Below are positions 2,925-49,528 of a DNA stretch of 64,000 nt, piece after piece. The DNA is taken from assembly GCA_023898465.1 (NCBI GenBank), contig CP060223.1, positions 928,001-992,000 on the forward strand, given 5' to 3'. Under the pieces are notes generated by a model. It searched no databases, was not told the origin of the DNA, and saw nothing but the letters and a program-made list of their open reading frames with translations. This DNA comes from Candidatus Nomurabacteria bacterium. GTDB taxonomy: Bacteria; Patescibacteriota; Patescibacteriia; HK-STAS-PATE-3. The position numbers were made by a program, and so were the translations under genes. Each line of letters opens with the position of its first letter. Position 1 is the first letter of the stretch.

Positions 2925-2937
2925 TTTTCTATTGCAT

Positions 2938-4316: not shown

Positions 4317-4344
4317 GAATGCATTACATCTTTAGGTAAAGGAG

Positions 4345-4725: not shown

Positions 4726-4748
4726 GCTACACTAGAATCAAAACACAG

Positions 4749-4781
4749 ACCTCTCCATATTTGGGGAGGTTTTGTGCTTTT
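4749..4781 (+). terminator. rho-independent terminator after pilin copy 3
   Basis: Stem acctctcc/ggggaggt (one G-U wobble) followed by TTTTGTGCTTTT. Confidence 0.5.
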
Positions 4782-4809
4782 GGCTGACTCCGCTACACTA
4801 TGAACGCAT

Positions 4810-6816: not shown

Positions 6817-8422
6817 GCTCGCCTGATTGGTATACTGTCTGAAGTGCAGAAATCGCGCTTGGATCAGCCACACTATTCCGCGTATCAAATTCACCCCATA
6901 GTAAATAATCCACACTCTGCTCTCGCAACCATCTTTCAAGGGCAGTATTTCCACTTTGGCGCGCTACAATAAAACCATCTGATTTGTCATTGTAATGCAA
7001 GGTTTCAATCGGGTGTCCAAATACCACTGCCCGACCCGCCCAAGCTGGTATATAGAGATTGCCAATTTTCCCAGCTGCAAAAACTGCACGAGTATCGGTG
7101 TGTGTTTTCATCCAGTCACTCATATCTTGATAAGATTGATCGACGTAGAGGTGGTATGGCGGCTGACGAAAAGTATCATTCGTCCAAAGATGTACATCCA
7201 TGCCCACTAAAGCAATCGGCGAAAGACTAAACACTACTACGGCCAGCATTGGAGTGGCTACATAGCGAGACCAGCTTACTAATGGAAATCGCTTGAATAC
7301 TATACGAAGACCAATAAAAGCAAATAAAGCTAGGGGGAGCATCCAACCTTCAGTTAGGCGGCGACTAAAACTAATCGGCAAAAAGAAAATACATGCTTGC
7401 CCAAACAACCACGCAAGCGGCATTGCGTAGGTGCTTCGATCACGACCTAGTTGAAACAAAGCAAGAAGGGCCAGCGGAATAAGAGCGCCATAGCTAATAA
7501 GTGTGGTAAAAAAGAATGGCATAGTATTCACATTCTGAGCCGCTCGGCTATTCGCAATTGGGTCAAAAAGTATTATCCCAACTTGGTAGAAAATCATTGG
7601 CAGCGCTAGTCCTCCTACAAGAAGCGCCCCCCACAAAGCCCGTGCCGTTTTATCCCGCTGCCATAAAAAAGTGAAGAGTATAAAAAGCACAAAAACCCCT
7701 ATCACTGTTGGTAAGTGAAAGGGGTGAAAGCTCATAAGTAAAAAAAGCGACAGGCCGCTTTGCAAAAAATACTGTATTTGCTTTTGCTGCACCCCGAGGT
7801 AATACCAATGAAAAATGAGAATAAGTAATGAGGTGGCTAAAATAAAATGCGGGCTCTGATACATCGTTAAAAATGTATACGCTTCACTTACCCAGAGATC
7901 CATCGGCCAAATCGCCCACTCAATAAATCCAAAAATGTATTTAATAAAAGGATATGCAATTGCTCCAAATCCTGCAGCAAAAAGAAAAAGCAAAATAGCA
8001 AATTTACGCTCACGCCATGCCGGAAGAAAATTGCGTAAGAAAATTTCGCTCGACCATAGGAGTAAGGGGATGAGGAGGATTCGGGCTAAATGAAAACTTA
8101 CTAATGCGGAAAGGTGCAGCCACTTTGCCATATATCCAACAACAATCCAGATTGGACTGAAAATAAAAGCGTCATGCGGCTCAGCAGTAAACAAATCCCT
8201 AAGCATCACCTGTCCCTGTTTTACCTGTTCTATGTAGGAAAAATAGACCGGCAAATCACCTGGAGCCAGTGTATGTCCTCCGGTAAAAATCATCCCATCT
8301 GCCTGCATCATCCACGCGTAGAGGTAAGGGAACGTTGTGAGAATAACTAAAGCGAGGGCTATCCACCAAAACCAACGACGTGGCATTTTTTCAGCATCTG
8401 GGTGAAGAGAAAAAAACTGCAT
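6785..8422 (-). CDS. large polytopic membrane protein, probable GT-C-like glycosyltransferase
   Basis: 545 aa with ≥10 hydrophobic helices followed by a soluble C-terminal domain. It is in an operon with a Dpm1-like GT2 (4-nt overlap). Confidence 0.45.
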   Translation of the reverse strand: MQFFSLHPDAEKMPRRWFWWIALALVILTTFPYLYAWMMQADGMIFTGGHTLAPGDLPVYFSYIEQVKQGQVMLRDLFTAEPHDAFIFSPIWIVVGYMAKWLHLSALVSFHLARILLIPLLLWSSEIFLRNFLPAWRERKFAILLFLFAAGFGAIAYPFIKYIFGFIEWAIWPMDLWVSEAYTFLTMYQSPHFILATSLLILIFHWYYLGVQQKQIQYFLQSGLSLFLLMSFHPFHLPTVIGVFVLFILFTFLWQRDKTARALWGALLVGGLALPMIFYQVGIILFDPIANSRAAQNVNTMPFFFTTLISYGALIPLALLALFQLGRDRSTYAMPLAWLFGQACIFFLPISFSRRLTEGWMLPLALFAFIGLRIVFKRFPLVSWSRYVATPMLAVVVFSLSPIALVGMDVHLWTNDTFRQPPYHLYVDQSYQDMSDWMKTHTDTRAVFAAGKIGNLYIPAWAGRAVVFGHPIETLHYNDKSDGFIVARQSGNTALERWLREQSVDYLLWGEFDTRNSVADPSAISALQTVYQSGELTLYRLRPVE

Positions 8423-9120
8423 TACTTCTGAGAGCGAAACAATAATGCAAGAATCATTTGAGCGTATTCACGAGCAATCGTGAATGAAATTTTACTCTTG
8501 CCATATTGGCGATCCTGAAAAACATAGCCGATTTCTGTGGTCTGAAGTGGACGCGCTCGAACCAAAATCTCTACTAAAAGTTTATACCCGCGCGGACGTA
8601 AAGTATGTGCAATGCGTGTATACACATCTCGTCGTACGGCAAAATATCCGCTCATAGGATCACGCTCTCGAATACCGAGCATCACCTGAGCAATCCTAGT
8701 AGCAAACCAACTCATGGCTTGGCGTCGCAGAGGCCAACCTAACATACCGCCGCCACTAACAAAGCGTGAACCGATAGCCACGTCATTACCTAACTGCACC
8801 GCCCTAATCATCTGCGGAATAATTGCCGTATCATGCGAAAGATCGGCATCCATGCAAATAAAAATTTCTGATCTGGCCTCTTCCATACCAGCCATCAGTG
8901 CAGAAGCAAGGCCTAACTTACCTGTTCGCTCAATAACCCTGACTGGATAGTGAGCAGCCAGCGAACGAACAAGCTGAGCGGTCCCATCTGGCGAAGCATC
9001 GTCAACCACAATTATCTCGACAACCAGCTGCAAGCGGGCAATCTGTCGAAGGCACGCCTCAATGTTCTCCTTTTCATTATAGGTTGGCAGGATAATGCTA
9101 GCTTTTGGCAAGGCGCTCAT
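8422..9120 (-). CDS. polyprenol-phosphate sugar synthase (Dpm1/GtrB-like GT2 glycosyltransferase)
   Basis: SIILPTYNEKENI…VVDDASPDGT…DADLSH… are classic GT-A/GT2 DxD-type motifs of dolichol/polyprenol-P-mannose/glucose synthases. Confidence 0.8.
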   Translation of the reverse strand: MSALPKASIILPTYNEKENIEACLRQIARLQLVVEIIVVDDASPDGTAQLVRSLAAHYPVRVIERTGKLGLASALMAGMEEARSEIFICMDADLSHDTAIIPQMIRAVQLGNDVAIGSRFVSGGGMLGWPLRRQAMSWFATRIAQVMLGIRERDPMSGYFAVRRDVYTRIAHTLRPRGYKLLVEILVRARPLQTTEIGYVFQDRQYGKSKISFTIAREYAQMILALLFRSQK

Positions 9121-10406
9121 GAAGATACGGATTTGGACTGATCGCTCGACCCTGATGAAGTATAAGGCAGGGCTGCTAATAGGAAAACAAGCGCGAGGTA
9201 ACCCAGGTGTGTGTCATTAAAATACCGGGCAAAAAACCAAAAAACAAGCAGGGTAAATCCATAGTACCAGAAGATATTTTGCAGGGAAATGTCTAGTCGA
9301 CTCTTCCTCAATAAAAGGAGAAAACTCGGGATTCCAATGCAGAGAGAAAAAACCCAAAATGGGAAATGTCCGTAGGGATCAATAACATGAAAAGTTGCCA
9401 TCCACTGGGCAATACCTAAACCTGATGCTGGATAACTCAACTCAGCGCTGCCGTTTGCATACTTCCAAACGTCATCATAAAAAGCTCCTGGCGACCAGAG
9501 AAAGAAAAAACCCATAACCACAATAAGGAGAAGTAGCGAAGGAAATAATGGACGATATACTTGCCGCCAAGGACCTGGTTTCCGGCGCTGCCATACTGCT
9601 ACGAGGTAAAATGGCACAAAGAGCCAGGCGGACTGCTTCATCAGTAAAGCAAAAACCAGAGCAAATCCCGAGCTCGTGTATCTGCCTCGATAAAGCGCTA
9701 GGGCTGCGAGGAAGAGGAAAAGCAATACGGTGATGTCATTCAACCCAGCCACAATAAACTTCAACATAAATGGATTCAACGCAGTAAGGATAATTGCTAG
9801 ATCTCTCCAAGGAGCTTGCACGGTTTTTGCTAAGAGTAAGAGGAAGGCAATCCAAAAAAGTAAGTACAGCGCACGTACATCAAACCAACCAGTAAATCGC
9901 TCTAGGCTCCATTGCCACGGCGCCACGATAAGGAAAGAGCCTGGTAAATACACATAGTGCTCCCAGGCTGGATTGGGTCGCGTGCTATCAGAAAAACGAT
10001 CAGGGAACACACCAAAAGCTGTACCACGATAATCACTCGCATAAGGATTTTTACCCTGTAGGAGAAAATGACTCGCTTCCTCAGTCTGGATTGCACCATC
10101 GTGCACATATGCTTCTAGTGGACGATAAGGTCGTACCAGCATCTGCAAGGTACAGACGGTCACTAGGATGCCTATGCTTAAGATAAGGACGATCCTTGTT
10201 CGCATCTCATCTGCTGATGGGGCAAAGATAAGACTTAATCCATACGCAAACACCAGCAACAAAGGCAGGATGCCAAACCAGAAAAGTGGTGTGGGGGAAA
10301 AGAAATAACTAAAGGCCTGCTGACCTGAAAAAACCTCGGCCATCACATAAAGCACGAGGAGAAGAATGAGAACAAAAGTAAAACGTCGAATCGTGATTCC
10401 GTTCAT
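9117..10406 (-). CDS. polytopic membrane protein, probable GT-C-like glycosyltransferase
   Basis: 429 aa, ~10 TM helices, and it overlaps its neighbours by 4 nt (operon). Confidence 0.45.
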   Translation of the reverse strand: MNGITIRRFTFVLILLLVLYVMAEVFSGQQAFSYFFSPTPLFWFGILPLLLVFAYGLSLIFAPSADEMRTRIVLILSIGILVTVCTLQMLVRPYRPLEAYVHDGAIQTEEASHFLLQGKNPYASDYRGTAFGVFPDRFSDSTRPNPAWEHYVYLPGSFLIVAPWQWSLERFTGWFDVRALYLLFWIAFLLLLAKTVQAPWRDLAIILTALNPFMLKFIVAGLNDITVLLFLFLAALALYRGRYTSSGFALVFALLMKQSAWLFVPFYLVAVWQRRKPGPWRQVYRPLFPSLLLLIVVMGFFFLWSPGAFYDDVWKYANGSAELSYPASGLGIAQWMATFHVIDPYGHFPFWVFSLCIGIPSFLLLLRKSRLDISLQNIFWYYGFTLLVFWFFARYFNDTHLGYLALVFLLAALPYTSSGSSDQSKSVSS

Positions 10407-23264: not shown

Positions 23265-23843
23265 CTACTGGTAGATTGACTTCACCTGACCCCAACTCCT
23301 GCTGAGGGTTGGCACCGGCCCGATTGTACCATAGGTCCGGAAGAGCCAATCATACGGCTTTTCTTCGCCTGCACTGTAGGCGGTGCCGCCAGGGTATTCG
23401 CATCCACCTTCTACCCGTCGTTCGGTGGCCCAACCGTTGTTTGAATGCGAAACAGGATGAAGGTAGTAGGTGGCGCCAGGCTGAATGGTCACACCACCGA
23501 AGTCGAAACTGATCCAGTTGTCCCCGCCCGACTCAACGTCTTGCGTCGCAACAGCCAGAACACTCTCGCCAGGCACCACTGAGTTCTGGAGAAAGAGCGT
23601 CACCGTACCCGCGGCTGGGTAAAAGAACAGCTCAACACCGCACAAGTAGTCCATCGTCGGCGTGAAAGACTGCAACAAACAACTTGAAAGTTCTTCCTCT
23701 GGAGTGCAGTACATACTGTGTCCAAAAGTCGGACCGATGATTGGTTCACAGCTCTGGTCGAGGTCACCGCAGGGTGCTTGCGCATTCGCGCTGCTTGCAC
23801 ACAGCACCACCAAAGCAAAAACGAGGCCACTGAAACGCGACAT
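23265..23843 (-). CDS. secreted hypothetical protein (GC-rich island 1)
   Basis: Strong SD GGGAGGTG precedes the ATG. Signal peptide MSRFSGLVFALVVLCASSANAQA. It carries 6+ Cys, and the GC content is visibly higher than the flanks. Confidence 0.5.
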   Translation of the reverse strand: MSRFSGLVFALVVLCASSANAQAPCGDLDQSCEPIIGPTFGHSMYCTPEEELSSCLLQSFTPTMDYLCGVELFFYPAAGTVTLFLQNSVVPGESVLAVATQDVESGGDNWISFDFGGVTIQPGATYYLHPVSHSNNGWATERRVEGGCEYPGGTAYSAGEEKPYDWLFRTYGTIGPVPTLSRSWGQVKSIYQ

Positions 23844-23896
23844 GAGACACCTCCCACTTTGTTTGTAAGGAGCCTTGATTAGCTTTACTGCTTCAA

Positions 23897-23951
23897 TAAT
23901 AAACCCCGACCACAGCGCTGCGCAAGCACAGCCGTGGCCGGGGAAGTACTG
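23897..23951 (-). terminator. terminator cassette A2 (paralog of A1)
   Basis: Minus-strand read: AGTACTTCCCCGGCCAC…GCAGCGCTGTGGTCGGGGTTTATTATTGAAGC. Confidence 0.55.
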
Positions 23952-24470
23952 TCACCAGCCATCCATAGTGGTTGACTGGTAATGGAAGTTGCGCTCCTCG
24001 ATCATGCCGGGATCAACGAGACGATCTCCATAGTAACGCCAGTAGTAAGCCCAGCGTCTCATATCGTCGAAGCTCAGACGCCTCCCAGTACAAGAGAGAC
24101 ATAGGTCACCGGCCTCCAAGGTGCGGCAACGCAAATCCCAGTAGAGAGAACCCTCCGTATCGAGTGGGTATTGACGCCACTGACCCCTGCACCAAGCAAG
24201 AGCGTCGCGCAGATCACGGTCATTGCGCTGATGCCACTCCTGCACCAACTCAGCTTGGAACTCGGGCTCGAGGGTCACTCCCTGGGAAAGAGTGATGAGA
24301 AGATTCTGGGCGCTCCGATCTCCGCCGGCCTGACCCTGAATCGTTCTCCAGGGCTTGGCCTTCATAAACGCGAGGTCCCAGACCTTCTCTCGGTCGCTCC
24401 GAGCATCAGCCTGAGCTAATGTGGCGAAACCGAACAGCATCAACACTAGGACGGTAACCCGAATACGCAT
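23952..24470 (-). CDS. secreted hypothetical protein (GC-rich island 1)
   Basis: SD AAGGAGGA precedes the ATG. Signal peptide MRIRVTVLVLMLFGFATLAQA. It is Trp/Arg-rich. Confidence 0.5.
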   Translation of the reverse strand: MRIRVTVLVLMLFGFATLAQADARSDREKVWDLAFMKAKPWRTIQGQAGGDRSAQNLLITLSQGVTLEPEFQAELVQEWHQRNDRDLRDALAWCRGQWRQYPLDTEGSLYWDLRCRTLEAGDLCLSCTGRRLSFDDMRRWAYYWRYYGDRLVDPGMIEERNFHYQSTTMDGW

Positions 24471-25724: not shown

Positions 25725-25937
25725 CCGCTGCCTCCGGGCTTTGGCGATGATGAAGTAACGTTTATTCATCTCATATTCCATTGACATCTGCTTTGACTCA
25801 AGGTAATTCAGCTAACCATAGAAATACTGTGGTTAGCTCCTTGAAACAAGTCGAATTTGGAGTACTGCAACGCCTGCAGACAGCCAAAATCGACGCTTCC
25901 ATTAGCGTGACACTGAGCACGTTAAGTGGAGGTTATC

Positions 25938-26894
25938 ATGTCACGGCAAGAAACCTGTCCTCGATGTGTAAAGAAAAACGTTTACGGCGCTCCTCGCCTG
26001 AGAATCACCACTGGAATCACTTGGCTTTGTTACATTGCCTTGTTTACGGCGCTCCTCTGTCTCGCCATTTTCCTGGGAGAGCCAAGCTCTTTCAAGAAGA
26101 GCATTGTGCTCATGTTCATCATCGTTAACGCGGCAACTCTGCTAGGCGCCGCTCACGACCTCCTGATACCCAAGCGGGTTTGGATATGGCGCGATAGAGG
26201 AGACAGTGTACATATTCACAAGGAAGCTCCAACGCTTCCCGACTTCGACTTCTGTGGATTCAAACATCCACTCGTTATGGCCTGGATCAACCGGCCGTGG
26301 CGTCGAGCTGACCTAAGTTGGGGTGCTGACACCTCGGGCATGTGTCTTCCTGAAGTCACTATGTCTTGGACACGCAAACGTCCATACTTCATCGTCACCT
26401 ACCACCAGCTTGGGACGATAACGCAGACTATCCGGATTCGGATAACTGAACCATCCACCATGCTCGACACCCTGAACTGGATTCGCTTCGCACCCAACCC
26501 TTTCAACTTTCAGGCGCACCTCGAGTCGCTAGATAATGAGAGGAGAGTCTCCCATACACTACACGAGCAAACAGAGTGGCTTACCTGGCTCAATGAACTC
26601 GTGTGCGCGCTGTACGTGGCTACCGAGCGACGGCGTACCTCGCTTGGCCAATCTCCTCATGGTCAGTTTGTTCACGCTTATCTCGGCCACCTGCTTGGCT
26701 TCATGCGAGTCCACAACATAACAGGAAGGGAAAGCCCAAACCATGCGGTCCGGGTAGAGGATGAGGCAACACAGATCGCCGACACCATCGCGTCAGCTAA
26801 GCAGGAGGGGGGTAAACACTGGGCAGAACGAGCTGCGGACAAGGTTTGGGAAAACCGAAATCGAGCAGCGCTTGAACCCGTCACTGAGTCGTGA
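25938..26894 (+). CDS. hypothetical two-TM membrane protein (GC-rich island 2)
   Basis: SD GTGGAGGT precedes ATG 25938. It has two N-terminal TM helices then a ~230-aa soluble domain, with no recognisable family. Confidence 0.45.
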   Translation: MSRQETCPRCVKKNVYGAPRLRITTGITWLCYIALFTALLCLAIFLGEPSSFKKSIVLMFIIVNAATLLGAAHDLLIPKRVWIWRDRGDSVHIHKEAPTLPDFDFCGFKHPLVMAWINRPWRRADLSWGADTSGMCLPEVTMSWTRKRPYFIVTYHQLGTITQTIRIRITEPSTMLDTLNWIRFAPNPFNFQAHLESLDNERRVSHTLHEQTEWLTWLNELVCALYVATERRRTSLGQSPHGQFVHAYLGHLLGFMRVHNITGRESPNHAVRVEDEATQIADTIASAKQEGGKHWAERAADKVWENRNRAALEPVTES

Positions 26895-26937
26895 CAATTC
26901 TACGCGCCCTGATCTCTAGGAGATTGGGGCGCTTTTT
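26882..26937 (+). terminator. terminator cassette B1 (13-bp stem GCGCCCTGATCTC/GAGATTGGGGCGC then UUUUU), ~54-bp repeat
   Basis: It starts at the stop codon of the upstream gene and is ≥90% identical to 27936-27988. Confidence 0.6.
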
Positions 26938-27100
26938 ACATTGACGAAATTTTCTGCGCTTGCTAGCGTGAGTCCGCATGAGGAAATGCCTCACGTAAGC
27001 TCTTTACAATAGAGCAATCCTGTAACAAGCCGACGCAAGTAAGGCAATTTGCATCCGCTTGTTTCCCGCCTTGAAAAATCAGGGCCGGTAAGGAGTAAAA

Positions 27101-27931
27101 ATGACCTGCGCGAAAGAATCTACCAAAGAGTTGGATCTCACCAACTACCTACCTCTTCCCAGGGGCGGCTTGCGATGGACGGTCTCCACGCTATGCTTTT
27201 CCCTTGCTGCTTTTCTGGGACTCTTCTTGCTCTTCAAAATGGCCGTCAATAGTGAGGGGCTATGGTGGTCACGCCTGTTCTACGGCTGCCTGATTATCGC
27301 CATCTTAGTCTCACTACTTGGATTTTTTGGCTTGAAGCTACTCCGATTCAACTATGCGTATTGGAGAAGAAATGTGAGGGGTTACTACATCTCCTATCCG
27401 CAAATGGATCGAGTGTACTATCGTGGCGAGCGGGCCAAGGAAAGCTTGGCACTCGTAGAGATGCACCTAGCTCTGGGCGGTTGGCGCCATCAACTTGGGA
27501 GCTTTCATCGAGGCTTTGTGGTTACCTCGCGAGACACTTCCGCGGACTCCATCTTTTGGTATGGAGTAAAAATCGTTCAACAATCACCACAACCTTCAGG
27601 GCTTCGCGTGATCGTCTACAGTCACCGGAAAAAGGAACAAACACCACCAATGAGCCTACGGCATGCCAGCGTGCTTATCGGTAAGTTATGCCGCAACCAG
27701 AGCTCCTTGGAACTTGAGTTTGCAACCTTTCTCACCAGTGAAGATGGGCTCGTTAACGCCTGTATTCGCTTGCTTGAACGGATAAAGACAACCTCGCGCT
27801 TATCCTCTACACAAGAAGGTAGGGCCTTTGCTCGAGATCTTGCAACTGCGGCACTCAGTCACTCCATTCGTGGAACTCGGGAACACCGAGAACTTGTGGA
27901 TCTGCAAGAATACTGGGGTCGAACCAGGTAG
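27101..27931 (+). CDS. hypothetical two-TM membrane protein (GC-rich island 2)
   Basis: SD TAAGGAG precedes ATG 27101. It has two TM helices then a soluble domain. Confidence 0.5.
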   Translation: MTCAKESTKELDLTNYLPLPRGGLRWTVSTLCFSLAAFLGLFLLFKMAVNSEGLWWSRLFYGCLIIAILVSLLGFFGLKLLRFNYAYWRRNVRGYYISYPQMDRVYYRGERAKESLALVEMHLALGGWRHQLGSFHRGFVVTSRDTSADSIFWYGVKIVQQSPQPSGLRVIVYSHRKKEQTPPMSLRHASVLIGKLCRNQSSLELEFATFLTSEDGLVNACIRLLERIKTTSRLSSTQEGRAFARDLATAALSHSIRGTREHRELVDLQEYWGRTR

Positions 27932-32458: not shown

Positions 32459-33556
32459 TTATTGCCGAATCGGCATAATAAGATAGGTGTAGGACTCTTT
32501 ATTCGTCGGACGAAATACTCCCGGTCCATCACTATCGGTTAACTCAATCTGCACCTCTTCACTACTCATACTTGCTAATCCATCAAGTAAGTAGCGGTAG
32601 TTAAATAAGATGCTTGTTCCTTCTCCGTCCACCTGTCCTTCGAGGTGGGTAGAGTGCTCACCAACTTGCGTATTGGCCGCCTCGATGGTGACGCCCTTTC
32701 CTGCCACAAAGGCTAGGGTAATATCATTAATCCCAGTTTTGCAAAAAAGACTTGCTGCTCGCACCTGTCGACTCAGCGCCTCTACGGAGAAGGTGGCAGT
32801 GGTAAGATGTTCTTTTGGAATAATCTCTTGGTATTCAGGATATTGACCTTCAATGAGACGAGAAACAAGCTCTATATCGCCAATACGGAAGAGTATCTGG
32901 TTCTCGCCTAATATAATACTCATTTCATTTTCCTCGGTATCTAATATCCGCACCACCTCTTGAAGAGCTCGACTTGGCACAATAACCGCTCGCGTGTCTC
33001 CACTTGCGTTAATGTTTATCTTTCGCTCGGCTAAACGATAGCTATCCGTAGCAGCCAGCACCATGTTGTTATTCTCGATTTTTACATAGATGCCGTTTAT
33101 CTCGGGTCGTGAATTATCATTTGCTGCAGCAAATAACACTTGAGTTAGAGCTTGGCGTAAATCGTTAGTGGCCGCTTTTGTTATGCTTTTTTCTTCCACG
33201 CTTGGGATGACTGGAAATTCATCAGCGGCAATTCCCTTCATGGTTGTAGTTGTTTCACCGGTGGTGATGTGTAAACCCTCTTCACGTAATTCAATATCGA
33301 TCCGTACATTCGATAAAAGATTCACAAAGTCGTGAAGAAGTCGACCCTGTATGGTATACGCGCCTGGTGTTTCTACTTTTGCTCGGACCATGCAAGTAAC
33401 ACCAATTTCAAGATTTGTTGCTGATAGACGTATGCCGGTTGACTCCGCGGTAAGAAGAATATTTCCTAAAATTGGTAAGGCTGCGTTCTTTCCTACAGCT
33501 CGTGACACAATGGTTAATCCACGGATAAGGTTTTCTTGTGTACAGGAGAATTTCAT
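32459..33556 (-). CDS. dnaN: DNA polymerase III beta sliding clamp
   Basis: MKFSCTQENLIRGL… with three-domain length and positioned after dnaA. Confidence 0.85.
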   Translation of the reverse strand: MKFSCTQENLIRGLTIVSRAVGKNAALPILGNILLTAESTGIRLSATNLEIGVTCMVRAKVETPGAYTIQGRLLHDFVNLLSNVRIDIELREEGLHITTGETTTTMKGIAADEFPVIPSVEEKSITKAATNDLRQALTQVLFAAANDNSRPEINGIYVKIENNNMVLAATDSYRLAERKININASGDTRAVIVPSRALQEVVRILDTEENEMSIILGENQILFRIGDIELVSRLIEGQYPEYQEIIPKEHLTTATFSVEALSRQVRAASLFCKTGINDITLAFVAGKGVTIEAANTQVGEHSTHLEGQVDGEGTSILFNYRYLLDGLASMSSEEVQIELTDSDGPGVFRPTNKESYTYLIMPIRQ

Positions 33557-33808
33557 AGTAGATATTTTATATAAAACAGGAAGTAGTAATAGTAAGGGCT
33601 GGGGAAATGTGGATGAATGTGAGAGGGGTAAGTTTTAGGTAAGTAATCCGGGCTTATTTTACTTTTCATTTTTTTCTCTCATGTGTATATCATCGGCATC
33701 CTTATGTGCACGGTGTGTGAGAGGAAAGGGGATGAAAAATGTCATGTACACTTATCCAGTTTTTGTGCGGATACCATCCCCAAAGATATCCCAATACTTA
33801 TCCGCAGC
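33557..33808. promoter_or_regulatory. oriC part 1: DnaA-box cluster plus AT-rich stretch between dnaA and dnaN
   Basis: tgtggatga (33608), ttatccag (33752), tgcggata (33765) and ttatccgca (33798) are 7-8/9 matches to TTATCCACA. The AT-rich tract is ttttacttttcatttttttctctc. Confidence 0.55.
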
Positions 33809-35191
33809 TTATCCTGAGCCGTAGAGACGCTGAAGAATCAAGCGCAGGTTTTCCTGAAGGCGCTCATCCTCACGCAGCTGACCAGAAATTTTTGTTACCG
33901 CATGCATAGCAGTCGTGTGATCCCGATTACCTAACTCATAACCAATACTCGGGAAAGAGCTTTGAAGCTCCTCACGCATAAGATACATAGCAATTTGTCG
34001 GGGGACTACCAATTCTTTCTTACGGCTCACCCCAAGGAGATCAGCGATTTCAAGCTCGTAAAAATCAGCCACTACTTCAATAACCTGCCGCGGAGTAACA
34101 CCACCGCGTTTTGTTGAGCGCGTAACCGAAGAAAGTAGCTCTTTTACTGTATCCATGGTAAGTGATTTACCGCTTAACTCTTGGTAAGCCACCACACGAT
34201 TGAGGGCGCCCTCTAGTTCACGAATATTACTTTGTACATTTGTGCCGATGTAATGCAAAATTTCAGAAGAAAGTAAAAGGTTTTTTTCTCGACACTTCAC
34301 ATCCAGGATAGCAATACGCGTTTCTAGGTCTGGCTGGGCAATATCCGCAATCATTCCCCACTCAAAACGAGAGACAAGACGGTTTTCTAGTGAAGGAATT
34401 GATTTTGGTGGACGATCAGAAGTAATAATAATTTGTTTATTCGCCTGATGGAGCGCATTAAAGGTATGAAAAAACTCTTCTTGAGTTCCTTCCTTACCTG
34501 CCAAGAACTGGATATCGTCTACCAAGAGCACATCAACGCCACGGTAGCGATTTTTAAACTCCTCACCGTTTCCCTTACTAATAGCGCGAATGAATTCATT
34601 AGTAAATTTTTCTGAGGAGACGTAGAGCACACGCTTCGAAGAGTCCTGGGCAAGCACCTGATGGCCAATTGCCTGCATAAGGTGCGTTTTACCTAAGCCA
34701 GCACCCCCATAAATAAACAAAGGGTTATAAATTAACCCAGGTCGTTCTGCTACTGCTACGCAGGCCGCTTTTGCGAGTTCATTGGATTTGCCGGTAATGA
34801 AGGTGCCAAAGGTGTAGCGAGGATTTAAGGTAGCGTTTTCTGGTATCTTAGCGGTGGACGGGGCATCACTCACCACGTTCTGCGCTACGGGCGTCTCAGC
34901 CACGGCTACTTTTTGTAGGTTTTGGGCAGCTGGGGCTTTGCTTGGTGATTCTACTTTATAAGAAACCTGCACCTGAGCAGATCCAAGTGCCGATTTTACA
35001 GCTTTAAGTATTGATTCGTGGTATTTGCTCTCCAACCAGGCCTTAGTAAATGTATTAGGAACCCCGATAACCACACTATTTTCATCTTGGGACGCAACAA
35101 AAGTGTTACTAAACCAAGTAGTGAAATTTGGTCGGCTAATAAGTAGTTCTAATTCGCCTAATACGGCCTGCCAAAGCTGTTCATTGGTCAT
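33809..35191 (-). CDS. dnaA: chromosomal replication initiator DnaA
   Basis: Walker A GGAGLGKTHL, the AAA+ sensor and a C-terminal DnaA-box binding domain (…TAMHAV…). Confidence 0.9.
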   Translation of the reverse strand: MTNEQLWQAVLGELELLISRPNFTTWFSNTFVASQDENSVVIGVPNTFTKAWLESKYHESILKAVKSALGSAQVQVSYKVESPSKAPAAQNLQKVAVAETPVAQNVVSDAPSTAKIPENATLNPRYTFGTFITGKSNELAKAACVAVAERPGLIYNPLFIYGGAGLGKTHLMQAIGHQVLAQDSSKRVLYVSSEKFTNEFIRAISKGNGEEFKNRYRGVDVLLVDDIQFLAGKEGTQEEFFHTFNALHQANKQIIITSDRPPKSIPSLENRLVSRFEWGMIADIAQPDLETRIAILDVKCREKNLLLSSEILHYIGTNVQSNIRELEGALNRVVAYQELSGKSLTMDTVKELLSSVTRSTKRGGVTPRQVIEVVADFYELEIADLLGVSRKKELVVPRQIAMYLMREELQSSFPSIGYELGNRDHTTAMHAVTKISGQLREDERLQENLRLILQRLYGSG

Positions 35192-35858: not shown

Positions 35859-36100
35859 CGAGTATTAGCATCTTCCTTATACGAGCCTACCAGCGGAGTC
35901 TTTCGCCTGACCATGGATGGTTGCGCGCACGCTATCCTTATGGATACTGCCGATTTCACCCAACCTGTTCTATGTATGCCATTGAAGCTCTTCAGCGGCA
36001 TGGTTTTTTCCGTGGTACATACTTAGCAGTTCGTCGCCTGCTACGTTGTCATCCTTTTCACGAACCTAGTATTGATCCAGTTCCTAAATCACAGCAATGA
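35855..36100 (+). CDS. yidD: membrane protein insertion efficiency factor YidD
   Basis: LIRAYQRSLSP…CRFHPTCSMYAIEAL…HG. Confidence 0.85.
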   Translation: MTSISIFLIRAYQRSLSPDHGWLRARYPYGYCRFHPTCSMYAIEALQRHGFFRGTYLAVRRLLRCHPFHEPSIDPVPKSQQ

Positions 36101-36882
36101 ACATCATCGACATCCTTCTCTTTAATCCACTCTTTAACGGGCTCATTGGTACCTATCATATTTTGCCAGGGCAAGATATGGGAGTGGCGATTATTGTGTT
36201 AACCATAGTAGTGCGTGGGATTTTGGCGTATCCCTCAGCCAAGTCAATCAAAGCTCAACGCGAACTGCAGTTGATCCAGCCAAAACTTGAAGCCCTGAAA
36301 GAGCAGTACAAAGATAATAAGGAACAGATGGGTCAAAAACTCATGGAGTTTTATAAGGAGCACAAAGTAAATCCTTTTTCATCTTGTTTACCAACACTCA
36401 TTCAACTTCCCATAATCTTTGTGTTGTATCGAGTGTTTATTAATGGGCTAGCCCTGGACCCAGAAACCGGCACCTTGGTTGCTCATCAAATTGATCGTTT
36501 GTATGGCTCCTTGCATACTATTTATGCCACAACGCCAATTCACACGACAGCCTTTGGTTTTTTGGATCTCACGGCACCTCATAATATTTTATTAGCCCTA
36601 GTCACTGGCGCCTTGCAGTTTTGGCAATCGAGAATGTTAGTGGCCCGACAAGCGCCAATTAAATCAAAAGGTGCTCGAGACGAAAACATGGCTGCGAGCA
36701 TGAGCAAGCAGATGATGTATATTTTCCCGCTAATCACAGCGTACTTTGCCTATCTCTTCCCAGCCGGACTTGCGTTGTATTGGCTGACCTCTACGCTTTT
36801 CCAAGTTGTGCAGCAGTATATTCTTTTCCGTCGCGTTCATCCATCTAAGGAGCTTGATGACCTCACCGCTTCGCAAACATAG
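36097..36882 (+). CDS. yidC: membrane protein insertase YidC (short, Gram-positive/CPR type)
   Basis: 261 aa with five TM helices and a conserved Arg-containing TM1 (…VRGIL…). It lies in rpmH-rnpA-yidD-yidC synteny. Confidence 0.8.
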   Translation: MNIIDILLFNPLFNGLIGTYHILPGQDMGVAIIVLTIVVRGILAYPSAKSIKAQRELQLIQPKLEALKEQYKDNKEQMGQKLMEFYKEHKVNPFSSCLPTLIQLPIIFVLYRVFINGLALDPETGTLVAHQIDRLYGSLHTIYATTPIHTTAFGFLDLTAPHNILLALVTGALQFWQSRMLVARQAPIKSKGARDENMAASMSKQMMYIFPLITAYFAYLFPAGLALYWLTSTLFQVVQQYILFRRVHPSKELDDLTASQT

Positions 36883-37641: not shown

Positions 37642-38793
37642 ATGGAACTCTCGACCAAGGAGCAAGTTGTTGATGCGCTGCGTTCGCGTGAAAGCATCCT
37701 CATCGTATTGCCAAAAAATCCCAGCCCAGATGCCATAGCTTCTGGGGCGGCCCTGTCTACTATTTTGCGGGCCATGCAAAAAGAAATCCGGATTGTTTCG
37801 AGTGATTTTCAATTTCCTTCCTCACTAGGCTTTTTGCCTGCTCGGCCTGATATCCATACCGACCTGGACGCTGACCGTAAGCTGGTTATTAGTCTCGCTC
37901 TCAAGGAGACCAAACTAGGCGAGCTATCGTATGACGTGCAAGATGACATGTTGAAAATTTTTATTACCCCAAAGGGAAAAGGTTTCCATGAAAAGGATGT
38001 GAAGGCGTCATTAGGAGAATATAACTTTTCACTCATCATCACCCTCGACACACCATCCCTGCAAAGCCTGGGTCCGCTTTTTGAACAAAACGCCGATCTC
38101 TTTTATCAGGTTCCGATTGTAAACATTGATCATCATCCGACAAACGATTCCTTTGGGCAGATTAACTATGTTGATTTAGTAGCGACGTCGACCTCAGAAA
38201 TTGTGCTTGATCTTATTCAAGAGCTAAAACCTGATGTGTTAGATGACGCTATGGCAACAAATTTACTGACTGGAATTATCACAAAGACCCGATGCTTCCG
38301 TAGTCCAAGCGTTACCCCAAAAGCGCTCTCTGTCGCCTCTCATTTAATTGAGATGGGAGCAAAGCGAGAAGATATTGTGCGACATCTTTATCAAACACAT
38401 TCACTCACCGCTCTGAAACTATGGGGACGAGCCTTAGCACGATTAAAAGAGGCGCATCACGGACAGTTTGTCTGGACTATTTTGAATCGCCAGGACTTCC
38501 AAAAATCTGGAGCGGATGCCCGAGCCTTGCACGGAGTAATTGATGAGTTGATTGTAAACATGCCTCGCGCTCGAGTGATTCTAGTAGTCTATGAGGGGGA
38601 AGATGGTCAAATTCATGGTTTGGCCCAGAGCGATAAGCAAATTCGTAATCTTGCCTTGTTTAAAGACTTTCAACCAAGCGGCACAGACGAGTACGCTGAG
38701 TTGCGTTTCCCAGATGAGAGCCTTGAAATTGTGGAAGCAAAAGTAGCAGAGCGAGTCGAAGCATATTTTCGAACGCAAGGACTTCTCTCCTAA
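37642..38793 (+). CDS. nrnA: DHH/DHHA1 phosphoesterase (NrnA-like bifunctional oligoribonuclease/pAp phosphatase)
   Basis: NIDHHPTND (DHH motif), with upstream DxD motifs and a DHHA1-like C-terminus. Confidence 0.7.
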   Translation: MELSTKEQVVDALRSRESILIVLPKNPSPDAIASGAALSTILRAMQKEIRIVSSDFQFPSSLGFLPARPDIHTDLDADRKLVISLALKETKLGELSYDVQDDMLKIFITPKGKGFHEKDVKASLGEYNFSLIITLDTPSLQSLGPLFEQNADLFYQVPIVNIDHHPTNDSFGQINYVDLVATSTSEIVLDLIQELKPDVLDDAMATNLLTGIITKTRCFRSPSVTPKALSVASHLIEMGAKREDIVRHLYQTHSLTALKLWGRALARLKEAHHGQFVWTILNRQDFQKSGADARALHGVIDELIVNMPRARVILVVYEGEDGQIHGLAQSDKQIRNLALFKDFQPSGTDEYAELRFPDESLEIVEAKVAERVEAYFRTQGLLS

Positions 38794-44530: not shown

Positions 44531-44597
44531 GTTTTATTATCTACGCTAGGGTCAGAATAGATTTTGCAATGGCTGTTTGACAATGGAGGAAAAAGCG

Positions 44598-44909
44598 ATG
44601 AGCTGCAATCCACGGAATGTGCGGAATCGTCGACGGAATCTGTACGTAGCCCTTGGCCGTTTGGGGTTGCCACCGGATCAGCATCAGGAAGAGAAGCGGA
44701 AGATACGTGATGCCTGTCGTCATGGCAGGGCCTACGTGTTGCCTCCTCGCCGCGGTCGATCCATTTCCAAGCCGGTCTGTCGACCGTGTAATGGGAAGGG
44801 AAAGCGCGACTGTCATCTCTGTAATGGCAGGAGTAGTGGATGCTACTACTGCAATTACACTGGCAAGAAGACTTGCAACGTTTGCATGGGTGAGGGAGTG
44901 ACTACCTAG
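44598..44909 (+). CDS. small protein with four CxxCxGxG repeats (DnaJ-type zinc-finger-like), GC-rich island 3
   Basis: CRPCNGKG, CHLCNGRS, CYYCNYTG, CNVCMGEG. SD GGAGG lies 8 nt before ATG 44598. Confidence 0.4.
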   Translation: MSCNPRNVRNRRRNLYVALGRLGLPPDQHQEEKRKIRDACRHGRAYVLPPRRGRSISKPVCRPCNGKGKRDCHLCNGRSSGCYYCNYTGKKTCNVCMGEGVTT

Positions 44910-45673: not shown

Positions 45674-46723
45674 TTAGGTTGTTTTTGATAGACTCCAGTT
45701 TGGGTCAGCCTTGAGTAACTTCCAATCTGTATATTTTTTTTGCTTCGCCTGGAAATACCCCGCTGCGGCAATCATTGCTGCGTTATCAGTGCAGTAAGGG
45801 AGATTAGGTTTCAAAAAAGTGACGGCTGGAAATCGACGCGCGACAGCCGCGCTAAGTTCAGCGCGGAGCCGCCCATTGGCGGCCACGCCGCCGGCCAGCA
45901 GCAAAGTGTTGACCTTATGTTCTTGCAGGGCCCGCAGCGTTTTTCCAATCAACACATCAACTACCGCCTGTTCAAAAGAGGCGGCAATATCAGGCAAGTC
46001 TTTTTTCTTTGGATGATGCTTTTCTAAATGATAGCGCACGGCAGTTTTTAATCCAGCAAAAGAGAATTCAAGGTTAGCGCTTTTCAGCATTGGTCGCGGC
46101 CAGCTGTAGGCTTTTGGATTCCCTGTGCTAGCCAGCGTACTTAAGACTGGTCCACCCGGATAACCTAAACCCATTAACTTGGCCACTTTATCAAAGGCTT
46201 CGCCGGCGGCGTCGTCGCGCGTCTCACCAAGCAGTTGGAATTTCCCATAACCACGCATGAGTACAAGTTCAGTGTGACCTCCTGACACGAGTAGTCCCAA
46301 GGCTGGGAAAGGTGCCTTAAGTATACTTGGCGTATTTCCCTCCGCATCTGGTAACCAATTTGCATAGAGGTGGCCGGCCAGATGGTTCACTCCTACTAAA
46401 GGTTTTTTTAAAGTCCAAGCCAACGTCCGCCCTACTTCAACTCCAACCATTAGGGCTGACATGAGTCCTGGGCCGGCTGTCACTGCAATGACATCAATAT
46501 CTTCAAGTGTTATTTTAGCCTCATGCAGGGCAGCATCAAGGCCGGGAATAATAACTTCAAGGTGCATGCGCGCAGCTACTTCAGGCACTACGCCACCAAA
46601 TTTTGCATGAGTCTTTACCTGTGAGGCAACAAAGTGACTACGGACAAGAAAATGATCAGCCTTTCTCTCGAGAATGGCGATTGAGGTTTCGTCACAAGAT
46701 GATTCAATGCCGAGGATGATCAT
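45674..46723 (-). CDS. tsaD: tRNA N6-adenosine threonylcarbamoyltransferase TsaD
   Basis: MIILGIESSCDETSIAIL…, the Kae1/TsaD metal-binding HxxH region and 349 aa. Confidence 0.9.
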   Translation of the reverse strand: MIILGIESSCDETSIAILERKADHFLVRSHFVASQVKTHAKFGGVVPEVAARMHLEVIIPGLDAALHEAKITLEDIDVIAVTAGPGLMSALMVGVEVGRTLAWTLKKPLVGVNHLAGHLYANWLPDAEGNTPSILKAPFPALGLLVSGGHTELVLMRGYGKFQLLGETRDDAAGEAFDKVAKLMGLGYPGGPVLSTLASTGNPKAYSWPRPMLKSANLEFSFAGLKTAVRYHLEKHHPKKKDLPDIAASFEQAVVDVLIGKTLRALQEHKVNTLLLAGGVAANGRLRAELSAAVARRFPAVTFLKPNLPYCTDNAAMIAAAGYFQAKQKKYTDWKLLKADPNWSLSKTT

Positions 46724-47298
46724 GTGAGTTGTTTCCGTCGAATGAGGAGTAAGACGCTGAGTGAACCATCAAGCAAGACAATTGCAGCCGGGTAGAGCCA
46801 GGTACTTGGTACTATAGTGTCCAGAGCCAGAAGTGCAAAGACGTGGGCAATTGCGGCAAAAGCGTAGGATAGCACCTTTTCCTCATGCGGATAATGGTAA
46901 CCTTTTCGAAAAGTAGGAAGTGAGCCAAAAAAATCAACCAAGACAATAAGTACGATGGATGCTAGAGGCTCTTTTGTGAGTATCCAAAGGAGTAAAGAAA
47001 AAGCTGCGGCACTCAAGGCAATCCAATCAAAGCGTAAGAAGCGGCGATCTCCCCATTTCAGCGCGCCAATAAATATAAGCAGGCAAGATATGGAGTTAAT
47101 CCCAGTGACCCAGGCGCCTGGCCCGGCATCTTTCGCAATCTGAGCAGCAAAGGCGATAATGTTGAGCGTACCCCAGACTAACCAGGAAAAGGCATGTGGT
47201 TTGAGCTCTTTGCGTAGAACGCCGCGGACATATAAAAGGTCTCCAGATATGAGCAGTAGCGAGCCGATAATGCCAAAAAGTGTGGTCATACTTTGCAT
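46720..47298 (-). CDS. hypothetical integral membrane protein (~6 TM), co-transcribed upstream of tsaD
   Basis: Its stop overlaps the tsaD start by 4 nt and the whole protein is hydrophobic. Confidence 0.5.
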   Translation of the reverse strand: MQSMTTLFGIIGSLLLISGDLLYVRGVLRKELKPHAFSWLVWGTLNIIAFAAQIAKDAGPGAWVTGINSISCLLIFIGALKWGDRRFLRFDWIALSAAAFSLLLWILTKEPLASIVLIVLVDFFGSLPTFRKGYHYPHEEKVLSYAFAAIAHVFALLALDTIVPSTWLYPAAIVLLDGSLSVLLLIRRKQLT

Positions 47299-47396
47299 GC
47301 TGATATTGTAGCACGCGCATTGACATTTTCATGTTTTTTGCTACAGTAGCCTGTCGTTCATTACACTTGAATAGTCAGGAAAGGGAGGGCTATCAC

Positions 47397-47726
47397 ATGT
47401 TTTCGGTCTGGAATCTCGTCTGGGTGATACTCCTTGGATGCGTCTTTCTCTACTTCGGTCCTGTGCGGTTGCGGCGGCGTCGCAATAAGGTACGGCGAGA
47501 CGTGCTTGGGATGTTGTCGAAAAGGACCGTGCGAACGACAAGGCCTGAGCTGGTGTCGATGGTACGAGAAAGGCACAAGCATCCAACAGCTTTGATCGAA
47601 GAAGCGATTCGGGATCTCGTTAATCAGGGCAAGATTCTCAAACTCTCCTTCTCTGAGGGTTCGCGCAGCTACACGAACTACGTGATAGCTCAGCGAGACA
47701 GCTCGGAAGAAGGTCGTTCCCCTTAG
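47397..47726 (+). CDS. hypothetical N-terminally anchored small protein (GC-rich island 4)
   Basis: TM helix VWNLVWVILLGCVFLYF followed by an Arg-rich soluble part. Confidence 0.35.
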   Translation: MFSVWNLVWVILLGCVFLYFGPVRLRRRRNKVRRDVLGMLSKRTVRTTRPELVSMVRERHKHPTALIEEAIRDLVNQGKILKLSFSEGSRSYTNYVIAQRDSSEEGRSP

Positions 47727-47734
47727 GTTTCGAC

Positions 47735-48034
47735 GTGAGAGGAGACGAAGTGCACGAGGCGCATATTCATGTGACTTGCTCCACAGATGAGCATGATCGC
47801 ACGAAGGACTTTTTTGAAGATCACATCGCTGATGTGGTCGATGGCTACCGAGGCGCGGGAGCAGATACCCAGATTGAAGCTGAAGGAATGATTCGGGTGA
47901 GTTTCAACTTTCCTTCAGTGGAGATGCGGGAACGTTTTTGTCGGATGGAACAACGAGCATTGAGCTTGATGCTTCGGCATGCAGGAATCAATGCGAGTTG
48001 CAGATTGTGTGCAGACGAATGCACGCAAGGATAG
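47735..48034 (+). CDS. hypothetical protein (GC-rich island 4); GTG start, alternatively GTG 47750
   Basis: The ORF has GAGAGGAG upstream of the second GTG. No family was recognised. Confidence 0.3.
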   Translation: MRGDEVHEAHIHVTCSTDEHDRTKDFFEDHIADVVDGYRGAGADTQIEAEGMIRVSFNFPSVEMRERFCRMEQRALSLMLRHAGINASCRLCADECTQG

Positions 48035-48046
48035 AGAGGGGGCACC

Positions 48047-48673
48047 GTGCGTTTCTGGACTCTGTTTTTGATCCTGTGTTGTCTCTGTGCAAATACCGCC
48101 TTTGCGCGTTCACTGACCTTCACGGCCGGTGAGACTGCGGTGGCCAAGGGTGGCGGCATCGAGTACGCACAGCGTTCTGGTCAGGTTGAGTGGGCAGCCT
48201 TTGCTTATCTCAACGGCAACGTCAACGAGGGCAAAGCGCTCTTGAGCGCTGACCCCACATCGTGGTGTCGGGTTATGGCTGGTCCGATTGTGGGCCTGCA
48301 ATACCAGGACACCCTGGGCGCGCGTCTCTATGGCGGGGCTGAAGCCAAGGTGTTACCGCACTTTGGTAAAGAGCACCTCACCATCAAGGCGGCAACTCGA
48401 CACCGAGGAAGCACACGCTTCCATCATCTGGTGGTAGTGAATTGGATGCATGACTGGTCGCCGAGTATTTCGGCTGGTCCGGTCTACCAACCAATTCTGC
48501 GATCTGATCATTCCCTACCCTGGGATCACCGATTTGGCGTGCAAGTGAACTATAGTCAGAATAGTCACTTCACGTTGATGAGCGAGGTGCGAATGTCGAC
48601 CGGGTCGGCTGACGCGTCCTATGGTGTGTACCATCGGGTGAGTGGCCACATCGAACTGGCCTTCAAGTTCTGA
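48047..48673 (+). CDS. secreted hypothetical protein with signal peptide and C-terminal aromatic residue (beta-barrel-like)
   Basis: SD GAGGGGG, then 4 nt, then GTG. Signal peptide MRFWTLFLILCCLCANTAFA. It has alternating hydrophobic patterns and ends …HIELAFKF. Confidence 0.4.
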   Translation: MRFWTLFLILCCLCANTAFARSLTFTAGETAVAKGGGIEYAQRSGQVEWAAFAYLNGNVNEGKALLSADPTSWCRVMAGPIVGLQYQDTLGARLYGGAEAKVLPHFGKEHLTIKAATRHRGSTRFHHLVVVNWMHDWSPSISAGPVYQPILRSDHSLPWDHRFGVQVNYSQNSHFTLMSEVRMSTGSADASYGVYHRVSGHIELAFKF

Positions 48674-48679
48674 CTCCGA

Positions 48680-48737
48680 CCCCGTCTCTCGTAATCCGAT
48701 ACTGTCGGAGAAACGAGAGGCGGGGTTTTCTTTTATC
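48680..48737 (+). terminator. rho-independent terminator (CCCCGTCTCTCG/CGAGAGGCGGGG then UUUUCUUUUAUC); tail identical to cassette A1
   Basis: CGGGGTTTTCTTTTATCAA is shared with the 23186-23262 element. Confidence 0.6.
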
Positions 48738-48745
48738 AAAAGGAA

Positions 48746-48774
48746 AAAGCGCTGATGCAATGCACCAGCGCTTT
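48746..48774 (-). terminator. terminator hairpin for convergent DUF218 gene (AAAGCGCTG/CAGCGCTTT then U-tract on minus strand)
   Basis: 9-bp perfect stem. The minus-strand downstream sequence is TTTTTCCTTTTGAT. Confidence 0.5.
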
Positions 48775-48778
48775 GTAG

Positions 48779-49336
48779 CTAGCTAAATCGTCGAACCAAG
48801 AAGGCCGACCAACCAAGCAGATCCCACACTAGGAAGGAAAGGAAATGCCGGAAGCGTTTCTGGCAGTTACCTCCATAAGACGAGCGGGCCTTTATGACTA
48901 TGATCTCGATGCCGGAGCCATGCCACACATAGCGGAAAATCGCTCGAGCTCGCCGGGCGTGCCAAGGGTGAGTGACTAGCGCCACGCTACGCCATTCGGG
49001 GTGCTGACGCGTGATGCGCAGGACCTCGATCGCGTTATTGATAGTGCCGATTGAGCCGTTCTCCAGTATCATGTATACATTGCGTGCTCGCGCCTCGATC
49101 AAACGCTTCATCGCGATGGCTTCAGTCATGTGACCATCGTTGCCGTTGCCACCGCTCAGGACAATGCACCGAGCTAGTTCAGCTTGGTAGAGATTGAGAC
49201 CCTTGCGAGCGATTGATGCACTTTGGCGACTGGCTTGCGTGCCATCTGGCGAGAGGCCACAGCCGAGACAGATCACTGCATCGACGGGTTGTTCCGGGTT
49301 GATTCGTTCGTCTGGTATTTCCAGTCGGTGAACCAT
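48779..49336 (-). CDS. DUF218 (YdcF/SanA/ElyC-like) domain protein
   Basis: AVICLGCGLS… and …VLSGGNGNDGHMTEAIAMKRLI… match the DUF218 signature (vLGgg…G.tEA). Confidence 0.55.
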   Translation of the reverse strand: MVHRLEIPDERINPEQPVDAVICLGCGLSPDGTQASRQSASIARKGLNLYQAELARCIVLSGGNGNDGHMTEAIAMKRLIEARARNVYMILENGSIGTINNAIEVLRITRQHPEWRSVALVTHPWHARRARAIFRYVWHGSGIEIIVIKARSSYGGNCQKRFRHFLSFLVWDLLGWSAFLVRRFS

Positions 49337-49528
49337 CCGCCGGATCCGTTTTTTAAGCCTGTTCGTATATCACCCCCATGGTTGCGATCTGTGAAAGAAC
49401 GTCCTGTTTGGTCGATAAAGTAGCACAGCGCCAGCTAGAGTCAAGTTGTCCTTCACTTGACGGAGAAAGACGTTTTTAGATATAGTGCACGTAGACAGAT
49501 TTTGGTGGCTCTCAAACGGGAGTCACCT

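Follow-up and report, generated by a model that had tools for sequence, protein, structure and literature searches.

Introduction

Small monomeric outer-membrane channels of the KdgM/NanC type (PDB 4pr7, 2wjr and 8xua) have about 190-210 mature residues, which form 12 antiparallel strands joined by very short turns and loops around a lumen lined by charged residues. Here we describe a protein, C208, that belongs to the same size class and is predicted to share these features. It is encoded in a 64,000-nucleotide stretch of DNA from Candidatus Nomurabacteria bacterium (contig CP060223.1, positions 928,001 to 992,000), which we refer to throughout as the window, and it is the last gene of a three-gene operon that also encodes two smaller proteins, A109 and B94. 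C208 differs from the known channels in having no detectable sequence similarity to them (9-10% identity in structural alignment) and in coming from a phylum that is regarded as having no outer membrane. Moreover, some members of its family are fused to a polytopic inner-membrane protein, which to our knowledge is never the case for KdgM or NanC.

Other described barrels can be set apart from C208 by what it lacks. Unlike the 12-stranded FapF, COG4313 channels, autotransporter and intimin beta-domains, LpxR and PcoB, it lacks a plug helix and a passenger domain and is not extended at its N-terminus; unlike the lipid A deacylases, it has no invariant Ser/His catalytic set, the residue types that are invariant in its family being Gly, Arg, Glu, Tyr and Pro. 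A functional analogy, relevant if C208 should act as an effector, can be drawn with the Gram-positive beta-barrel pore-forming toxins of the alpha-haemolysin type, since in both cases a single-membrane cell would export a protein that forms its barrel in some membrane other than a native outer membrane. In those toxins, however, several subunits contribute hairpins to the barrel and there are large soluble domains besides, whereas C208 is predicted to be a complete barrel made of one chain, without a soluble domain.

Outer membranes, and the organelles that descend from them, are recognized by their single-chain transmembrane beta-barrels, and a lineage in which such barrels are missing is called monoderm for that reason. 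Patescibacteria are regarded as monoderm, without an outer membrane (PMC11665869, PMC12102498), and have been assigned to a monoderm clade in which porins and the systems that tether an outer membrane were lost (10.1101/2021.05.31.446380). An earlier note on this DNA, made from the sequence alone, had presumed a monoderm host, and Candidatus Nomurabacteria does belong to this phylum.

Results

C208 is predicted to fold as an outer-membrane-type barrel

C208 (208 residues) starts with a 20-residue signal peptide, MRFWTLFLILCCLCANTAFA, which is followed by RS; its n-, h- and c-regions were judged by inspection, and cleavage would fall between AFA and R. Cleavage sites of this AxA type are conserved across the family alignment. 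The protein ends in HIELAFKF, and in the narrow clade to which the window belongs hydrophobic residues occupy positions 0, -2, -4 and -6 from the C-terminus. The description in the earlier note of a signal-peptide protein ending in ELAFKF was therefore accurate.

The alignment used for structure prediction comprised 16 sequences, three of them close and about 13 distant. With these sequences AlphaFold2 (AF2) returned a model of C208 with a predicted local distance difference test score (pLDDT) of 89 and a predicted template modelling score (pTM) of 0.78; from the three close sequences alone the pLDDT was 30 and the model unusable, implying that the fold rests on the information in the alignment. 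The model consists of the signal helix followed by 12 antiparallel strands, an even number, which begin directly after the cleavage site and run to the C-terminus. Turns of 2-4 residues lie on one side, and the longest loops (two, with 7 and 13 residues) both lie on the opposite side. When the model was compared by Foldseek with the PDB and with viral proteins, most of the significant matches were outer-membrane barrels. Once the distant relatives are aligned, C208 is thus predicted with high confidence to be a 12-stranded beta-barrel of the outer-membrane type. This agrees with the beta-barrel proposed in the earlier note, even though the terminal Phe that had suggested it is a feature of the narrow window clade and not of the family: only 4 of the 16 family members have one, and most end in V.V.VPLK.

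The two faces of the strands differ strongly. One is 80% apolar and the other 39%, a difference with a z-score of 3.7 against within-strand shuffles, which bears out the alternating hydrophobicity that had been remarked on before; in 10 of the 12 strands the whole family agrees on which parity is apolar. The polar face carries the invariant residues R118, R162, E180 and R182 together with the conserved E99 and R124, as expected of a barrel lumen. Unless it is plugged, a barrel of 12 strands has too wide an interior to pack into a hydrophobic core. From this geometry and the conservation, the apolar face of C208 would point outward.

The chief alternative to a transmembrane barrel is that C208 is a soluble beta-rich protein, secreted or associated with the wall, in which case a ligand- or lipid-binding barrel or sandwich never enters a membrane and the porin-like model has been over-read. 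Such a protein would be at home in a phylum with no known outer membrane (PMC11665869), and several features of the family fit it: strands 1-4 are only weakly amphipathic, the alignment is shallow at 16 sequences, an apolar face could in principle line a lipid-binding cavity, and in one distant member, P0014, a non-membrane extension precedes the barrel. It is harder to reconcile with the scores of the model, with invariant charges on the polar face, which fit a lumen better than a solvent-exposed surface, and with the width of a plugless barrel. We consider a soluble C208 unlikely.

Two other identities were rejected. C208 is not a lipoprotein, because it has no Cys in a proper lipobox and Cys is absent from the wider family; nor is it a hydrolase of the PagL, LpxR or OMPLA type, because no Ser or His is invariant. 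Searches with C208 gave no Pfam or NCBIfam match at E<=1 and none in PHROGs or PADLOC, and the family profile found no PDB sequence at E<=10. In its GenBank record the gene is annotated only as "hypothetical protein". It lies outside any Pfam or NCBIfam family and, as predicted, combines a known fold class with an unexpected cellular setting and unusual fusions.

A small family in Patescibacteria

Among 5.8 billion proteins, the relatives of C208 were one identical copy and two close homologs, 87% and 65% identical. A profile search of 1.84 billion cluster representatives added 12 genuine distant relatives (E 7e-11 to 4e-4), after exclusion of one spurious repeat protein, and a second, word-indexed search with a 15-sequence profile contributed one more. 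The distant members are either signal-peptide proteins of about 196 residues or the C-terminal domain of proteins of 313-489 residues. Shared motifs include GEW, LDG..E, GP.VG, Y.G.E, RH...R, YQPI.R..W(D/E)HR and E.R.S. One member is MFC1662578.1, from "[Patescibacteria group bacterium]", and another lies near a T4SS_pilin gene. C208 founds a small, undescribed family in which all members with an organism name come from Patescibacteria. The literature searched on beta-barrels or porins in Patescibacteria or monoderms yielded no paper that describes one like it.

In six distant members (P0005, P0006, P0009, P0010, P0011 and P0013) the barrel is the C-terminal part of a fusion whose first part is a polytopic membrane protein of about 270 residues. 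At the C-terminal end of this partner, just before a signal-like helix, the motif SRAPP is invariant; a KPW motif is also conserved. In three loci (L086, 9177-10004; L089, 5207-6022; L084, 1-576) the SRAPP protein is instead a separate gene that overlaps the start of the barrel gene. No Pfam family matches it, and it may be a dedicated partner of the barrel.

The 6-kb contig L084 has two barrel paralogs, one standalone (564-1157) and one fused to the partner (4313-5752). The extension of P0014 (L093, 2940-3881) is of a different, non-transmembrane kind and about 120 residues long. In L084 and L089 the barrel is followed by an ECF-transporter-like (energy-coupling factor) gene; mem192, a membrane-protein gene next to the operon in the window, was considered as its counterpart and rejected, because BLASTP found no similarity.

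The host envelope and a proposed role for C208

The content of the window fits a Patescibacteria genome. Its YidC is of the short monoderm type (261 residues, with the 60KD_IMP domain starting at residue 28) and is missing the large periplasmic domain found in diderms. A pair of neighboring T4SS_pilin (PF18895) genes lies at 1941-3300, one of them with a peptidoglycan-binding domain; this pilin, part of a monoderm-type type IV secretion system, is characteristic of Patescibacteria (10.1101/2025.04.23.650224; PMC12102498). The window also encodes a type IV pilus ATPase, and LTD/PKD and FG-GAP surface proteins with C-terminal anchors. Misbinning or a chimeric assembly was rejected as the source of the barrel gene, because the arrangement on the NCBI contig of 1.08 Mb recurs on a Logan contig of 39 kb, which is independent of it, and in two assemblies of relatives.

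If C208 is a barrel, one might suppose that this lineage has an undescribed outer lipid layer with C208 as its resident porin. The C-terminus in the window clade does look canonical, with its terminal Phe and hydrophobic residues at alternate positions, and cell-wall architecture has been documented for very few organisms of the Candidate Phyla Radiation (CPR; PMC8871954). Nevertheless, none of the approximately 50 window open reading frames (ORFs) that were scanned has an outer-membrane biogenesis domain, the 64 kb contain only one such barrel gene and the family is rare, and the YidC is of the short monoderm type. Furthermore, the type IV secretion system (T4SS) of Patescibacteria belongs to the monoderm class (PMC12102498), and the clade is one from which porins and outer-membrane tethering were lost (10.1101/2021.05.31.446380). 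A resident porin in a hidden outer layer seems to us very improbable.

We favor, as probable, the proposal that C208 is an exported barrel that inserts into a bilayer and serves there as a small channel or an anchor, with A109 and B94 in accessory roles. C208 would be exported by the Sec pathway and its signal peptide cut at the AFA site; the mature protein, of about 188 residues, would fold as a compact 12-stranded antiparallel barrel of KdgM/NanC-type architecture, apolar on the outside, with short turns and with conserved Arg, Glu and Tyr lining the lumen; and the exported barrel would then insert into a lipid bilayer. A109, membrane-tethered and possibly DNA-binding, and B94 would be accessory or regulatory partners specific to the clade. 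What the data show is the gene structure, the identity of the host, the distribution of the family, purifying selection, and a predicted fold that resembles outer-membrane barrels; it is from this fold and the surface pattern that we infer bilayer insertion and a role as channel or anchor. The candidates for the target membrane are the producer's own, that of a host cell and an undescribed outer layer.

Several considerations weigh against this proposal. The fold is wholly predicted, from an alignment of 16 sequences; the first four strands are the weakly amphipathic ones; one family member shows no dyad signal at all (z 0.0); and the family as a whole does not keep the canonical aromatic signal at its C-terminus. 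Both A109 and B94 are orphan proteins whose roles we can only guess at. Finally, Patescibacteria are regarded as having no machinery for inserting barrels (PMC11665869, PMC12102498, 10.1101/2021.05.31.446380), and because the phylum is also regarded as having no outer membrane, C208 has no obvious home membrane.

A bolder version, which we regard as rather doubtful, is that some Patescibacteria export genuine single-chain barrels that insert without the beta-barrel assembly machinery (BAM), either into the membrane of a host cell, as a nutrient conduit or a weapon, or into an undescribed outer lipid layer of their own, with the SRAPP protein as a dedicated partner for BAM-independent export or insertion. 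If that reading were true, the C208 family would provide a natural example of how barrels insert without BAM, and the SRAPP protein would be the candidate for a dedicated partner. A conserved and selected family of Sec-exported barrels in Patescibacteria would expose a gap in what is known of the envelope of these ultra-small epibionts or, alternatively, point to a new way for them to breach or tap host membranes, the central open question of their biology.

The operon and its neighbors

The C208 gene lies in a block at 47300-49440 that contains four ORFs. A109, B94 and C208 form a three-gene operon on the plus strand, and a YdcF/DUF218 gene faces it on the other strand. On one side the block is flanked by tsaD and mem192, and on the other by a cluster of LTD/PKD surface-protein genes. 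The features are as follows.

45674-46723, minus strand (same orientation as mem192): tsaD (USN53458.1)
46720-47298, minus strand: mem192, a polytopic membrane protein of 192 residues, overlapping the start of tsaD
47320-47347, plus strand: promoter-like, sigma-70-like site, TTGACA, 16 nucleotides, TACAGT, with TG; 10 of 12 consensus matches; putative promoter
47397-47726, plus strand: A109, ORF of 109 residues, with Shine-Dalgarno sequence GGAAAGGGAGGG
47750-48034, plus strand: B94, ORF of 94 residues (99 residues if translated from another GTG, at 47735)
48047-48673, plus strand: C208, ORF of 208 residues, signal peptide and predicted 12-stranded beta-barrel (USN53461.1, H6760_04880, "hypothetical protein")
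48678-48735, plus strand: intrinsic terminator of the operon, a long hairpin and then UUUUCUUUU; folding energy of the RNA from 48678-48727, -36.6 kcal/mol, z -7.0
48736-48774, minus strand: intrinsic terminator of the DUF218 gene, a 13-bp stem followed by UUUUUCCUUUU; -20.4 kcal/mol, z -3.1 for 48774-48746
48779-49336, minus strand: DUF218/YdcF-family gene, 185 residues, Pfam PF02698 (USN53462.1, called as 165 residues in GenBank)

The operon genes are separated by only 23 nucleotides (A109 to B94) and 12 nucleotides (B94 to C208), and each has its own Shine-Dalgarno sequence. The promoter-like site lies upstream of A109, within the divergent intergenic region that the operon has in common with mem192; mem192 is co-transcribed with tsaD and is the conserved left border of a variable slot, which is described below. 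ORF, Pfam and terminator scans reproduced the anatomy given in the earlier note, including the convergent DUF218 gene and two back-to-back terminators, both of which have a hairpin and a U-tract; for the plus-strand terminator, 0 of 200 shuffles folded equally well.

As had been noted before, the first small protein has an N-terminal membrane anchor: in A109 a hydrophobic, transmembrane helix (approximately residues 5-21) is followed by the Arg-rich stretch RLRRRRNKVRR. The remainder gave weak matches to winged-helix profiles, namely SAMD1_WH (23.7 bits, below its cut-off of 24.5), eS25 and RPA32 WH (E 0.2-1) and MCM4_WHD, so that residues 45-95 or thereabouts are a possible candidate for a cytoplasmic winged-helix domain. 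Among the 5.8 billion proteins, A109 was found only in three lineages, that of the window, L002 and L003. The gene has no annotation in the GenBank record of this genome. Because it has a Shine-Dalgarno sequence, homologs in two relatives and a ratio of nonsynonymous to synonymous substitution rates (dN/dS) of 0.17-0.36, it looks like a gene that was missed.

Genes for winged-helix regulators of the TrmB type lie beside or near the barrel gene in two distant loci (L093, 1980-2786; L086, 6018-6767), which recalls the possible winged-helix domain of A109.

The second small protein had been described as having 99 residues. That ORF exists, from the GTG at 47735, but the GTG at 47750 is the likelier start, because it has a GGAGA Shine-Dalgarno sequence 6 nucleotides upstream and because other assemblies are called this way; the product has 94 residues in the Logan/ENA assemblies and 87 at NCBI (USN53460.1). 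B94 has conserved His and Cys residues, is small and probably cytoplasmic, and gave no family or PDB match. The idea that A109 or B94 is a cut-down version of the SRAPP partner was rejected, since hhalign gave a probability of at most 1%.

The convergent gene matches PF02698 well above the gathering score (E 9.5e-19; 68.1 bits against a cut-off of 27.6; residues 19-142), which confirms the DUF218 assignment made before, and NCBI names its product "YdcF family protein". It thus belongs with the envelope-associated YdcF/ElyC/SanA proteins. No DUF218 gene lies near the barrel gene in the other barrel loci that were examined, which confines the adjacency to the narrow clade of the window; a functional tie between this gene and the operon would be conjectural.

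Relatives, a variable slot and selection

Two independent assemblies, L002 and L003, have the whole block, A109-B94-C208-DUF218, in synteny; their C208 proteins share 87% and 65% identity with that of the window. In two more distant relatives, L004 and L005 (GTDB genomes with TsaD 70-71% identical), the flanking LTD/PKD gene is present and the block is absent. L005 in addition retains valS, a zinc-finger gene and, beside tsaD, a mem192 homolog that is 61% identical. Between the same flanks, L005 has an IS200-like transposase gene (Y1_Tnp, E 1e-10; 8738-9256), and L004 has several lipoprotein-like and signal-peptide orphans (6200-9800). Since these relatives hold other genes at the site, it is a variable slot, a hot spot for lineage-specific exported proteins. 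Synteny is therefore kept among the closer relatives only, and the pattern of presence and replacement supports gain and loss at this slot.

All four genes of the block are under purifying selection (dN/dS 0.09-0.45 overall), with values of 0.25-0.45 for B94, 0.14-0.26 for C208 and 0.09-0.14 for the DUF218 gene. They evolve faster than tsaD and mem192, whose dN/dS is 0.05-0.07.

The faster evolution of C208 relative to these housekeeping neighbors is one of several observations that would suit an effector, exported by an epibiont and inserting itself into the membrane of its basibiont for nutrient uptake or host damage. Patescibacteria are mostly obligate epibionts whose mechanisms of nutrient acquisition are unknown (PMC11665869); the barrel is exported from a cell with no outer membrane to receive it; in its compact shape, short loops and numerous small apolar residues facing outward it resembles barrels that fold spontaneously; its gene adjoins a cluster of surface-protein genes; and its distribution among lineages is patchy. 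Yet a family this rare is a poor fit to a core role in the epibiotic lifestyle, and the fact that other lineages have it fused to a polytopic membrane protein suggests that the barrel stays near the membrane of its producer. A dedicated effector is, in our estimation, quite unlikely, and we retain the more general proposal of an exported barrel that acts as a channel or an anchor in a bilayer.

Base composition and horizontal transfer

The earlier note had called the block GC-rich, and it is: its GC content is 0.537 against a window mean of 0.470, close to the maximum of all 2141-nucleotide sliding windows, of which a fraction of only 0.002 reach this value. The GC content at third codon positions (GC3) is 0.61-0.62 in A109, C208 and the DUF218 gene, compared with a gene mean of 0.46 (standard deviation 0.07; z about 2.1-2.3), and is ordinary in B94.

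This composition invites the view that the block is a recent island from a GC-richer diderm donor and the barrel a transferred outer-membrane protein gene with no adapted function. Besides being the GC-richest 2.1-kb stretch of the window, with a GC3 z of about 2.2, the block is missing from the slot in L004 and L005, and L005 has its transposase there. But the barrel gene exceeds its surroundings in both GC and GC3 in all five of the other lineages compared (L084, L085, L086, L089 and L091; locus GC 0.41-0.60), for example 0.53 against 0.41 and 0.66 against 0.59, so the excess seems to go with the gene family and not to signal recent import. Nor is it specific to import, because other orphans in the window are equally GC3-rich. 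Synteny that is intact down to 65% C208 identity, combined with purifying selection, likewise argues against a functionless newcomer.

The searches for a donor or a vehicle were negative. Around the block in the window there are no convincing flanking repeats and no integrase, tRNA or mobility genes, and searches of the block against PHROGs, PADLOC and plasmids gave no matches; phage, defense-system and plasmid readings were dropped accordingly. No homolog of C208 was found in any named genome outside Patescibacteria. Searches of a plasmid collection, of GTDB representative genomes and of metagenome (JGI) and viral contigs also gave none, where the GTDB, JGI and viral contig scans used patterns from the close-homolog alignment, the wider one being too divergent for pattern scans. 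A diderm donor of the block is thus not supported, the earlier suggestion of horizontally acquired genes is weakened, and we give an unadapted import very little credence.

The other GC3-rich orphans (GC3 0.54-0.64) lie at 23265-24470 and 25926-27931 and encode two signal-peptide proteins and two membrane proteins with two helices. None matches Pfam, and by profile search they are unrelated to the barrel family.

Other features of the window

Between valS (USN53456.1) and tsaD, at 44577-44909, lies a gene for a small Cys-rich protein with zinc-finger repeats of the CxxCxGxG type; its homolog in L005 (11540-11773) is 43% identical over 49 residues. ARAGORN called a tRNA-Met at 38578-38662, inside an ORF of the DHH family (37642-38793). 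This call is probably a false positive, because Rfam at gathering thresholds found no RNA family anywhere in the window. Finally, dnaN and dnaA (32459-35191) are followed by yidC (36097-36882), and the cumulative GC skew has its minimum near 36-40 kb; together, the gene order and this turning point imply that the window spans the region of the chromosomal replication origin.

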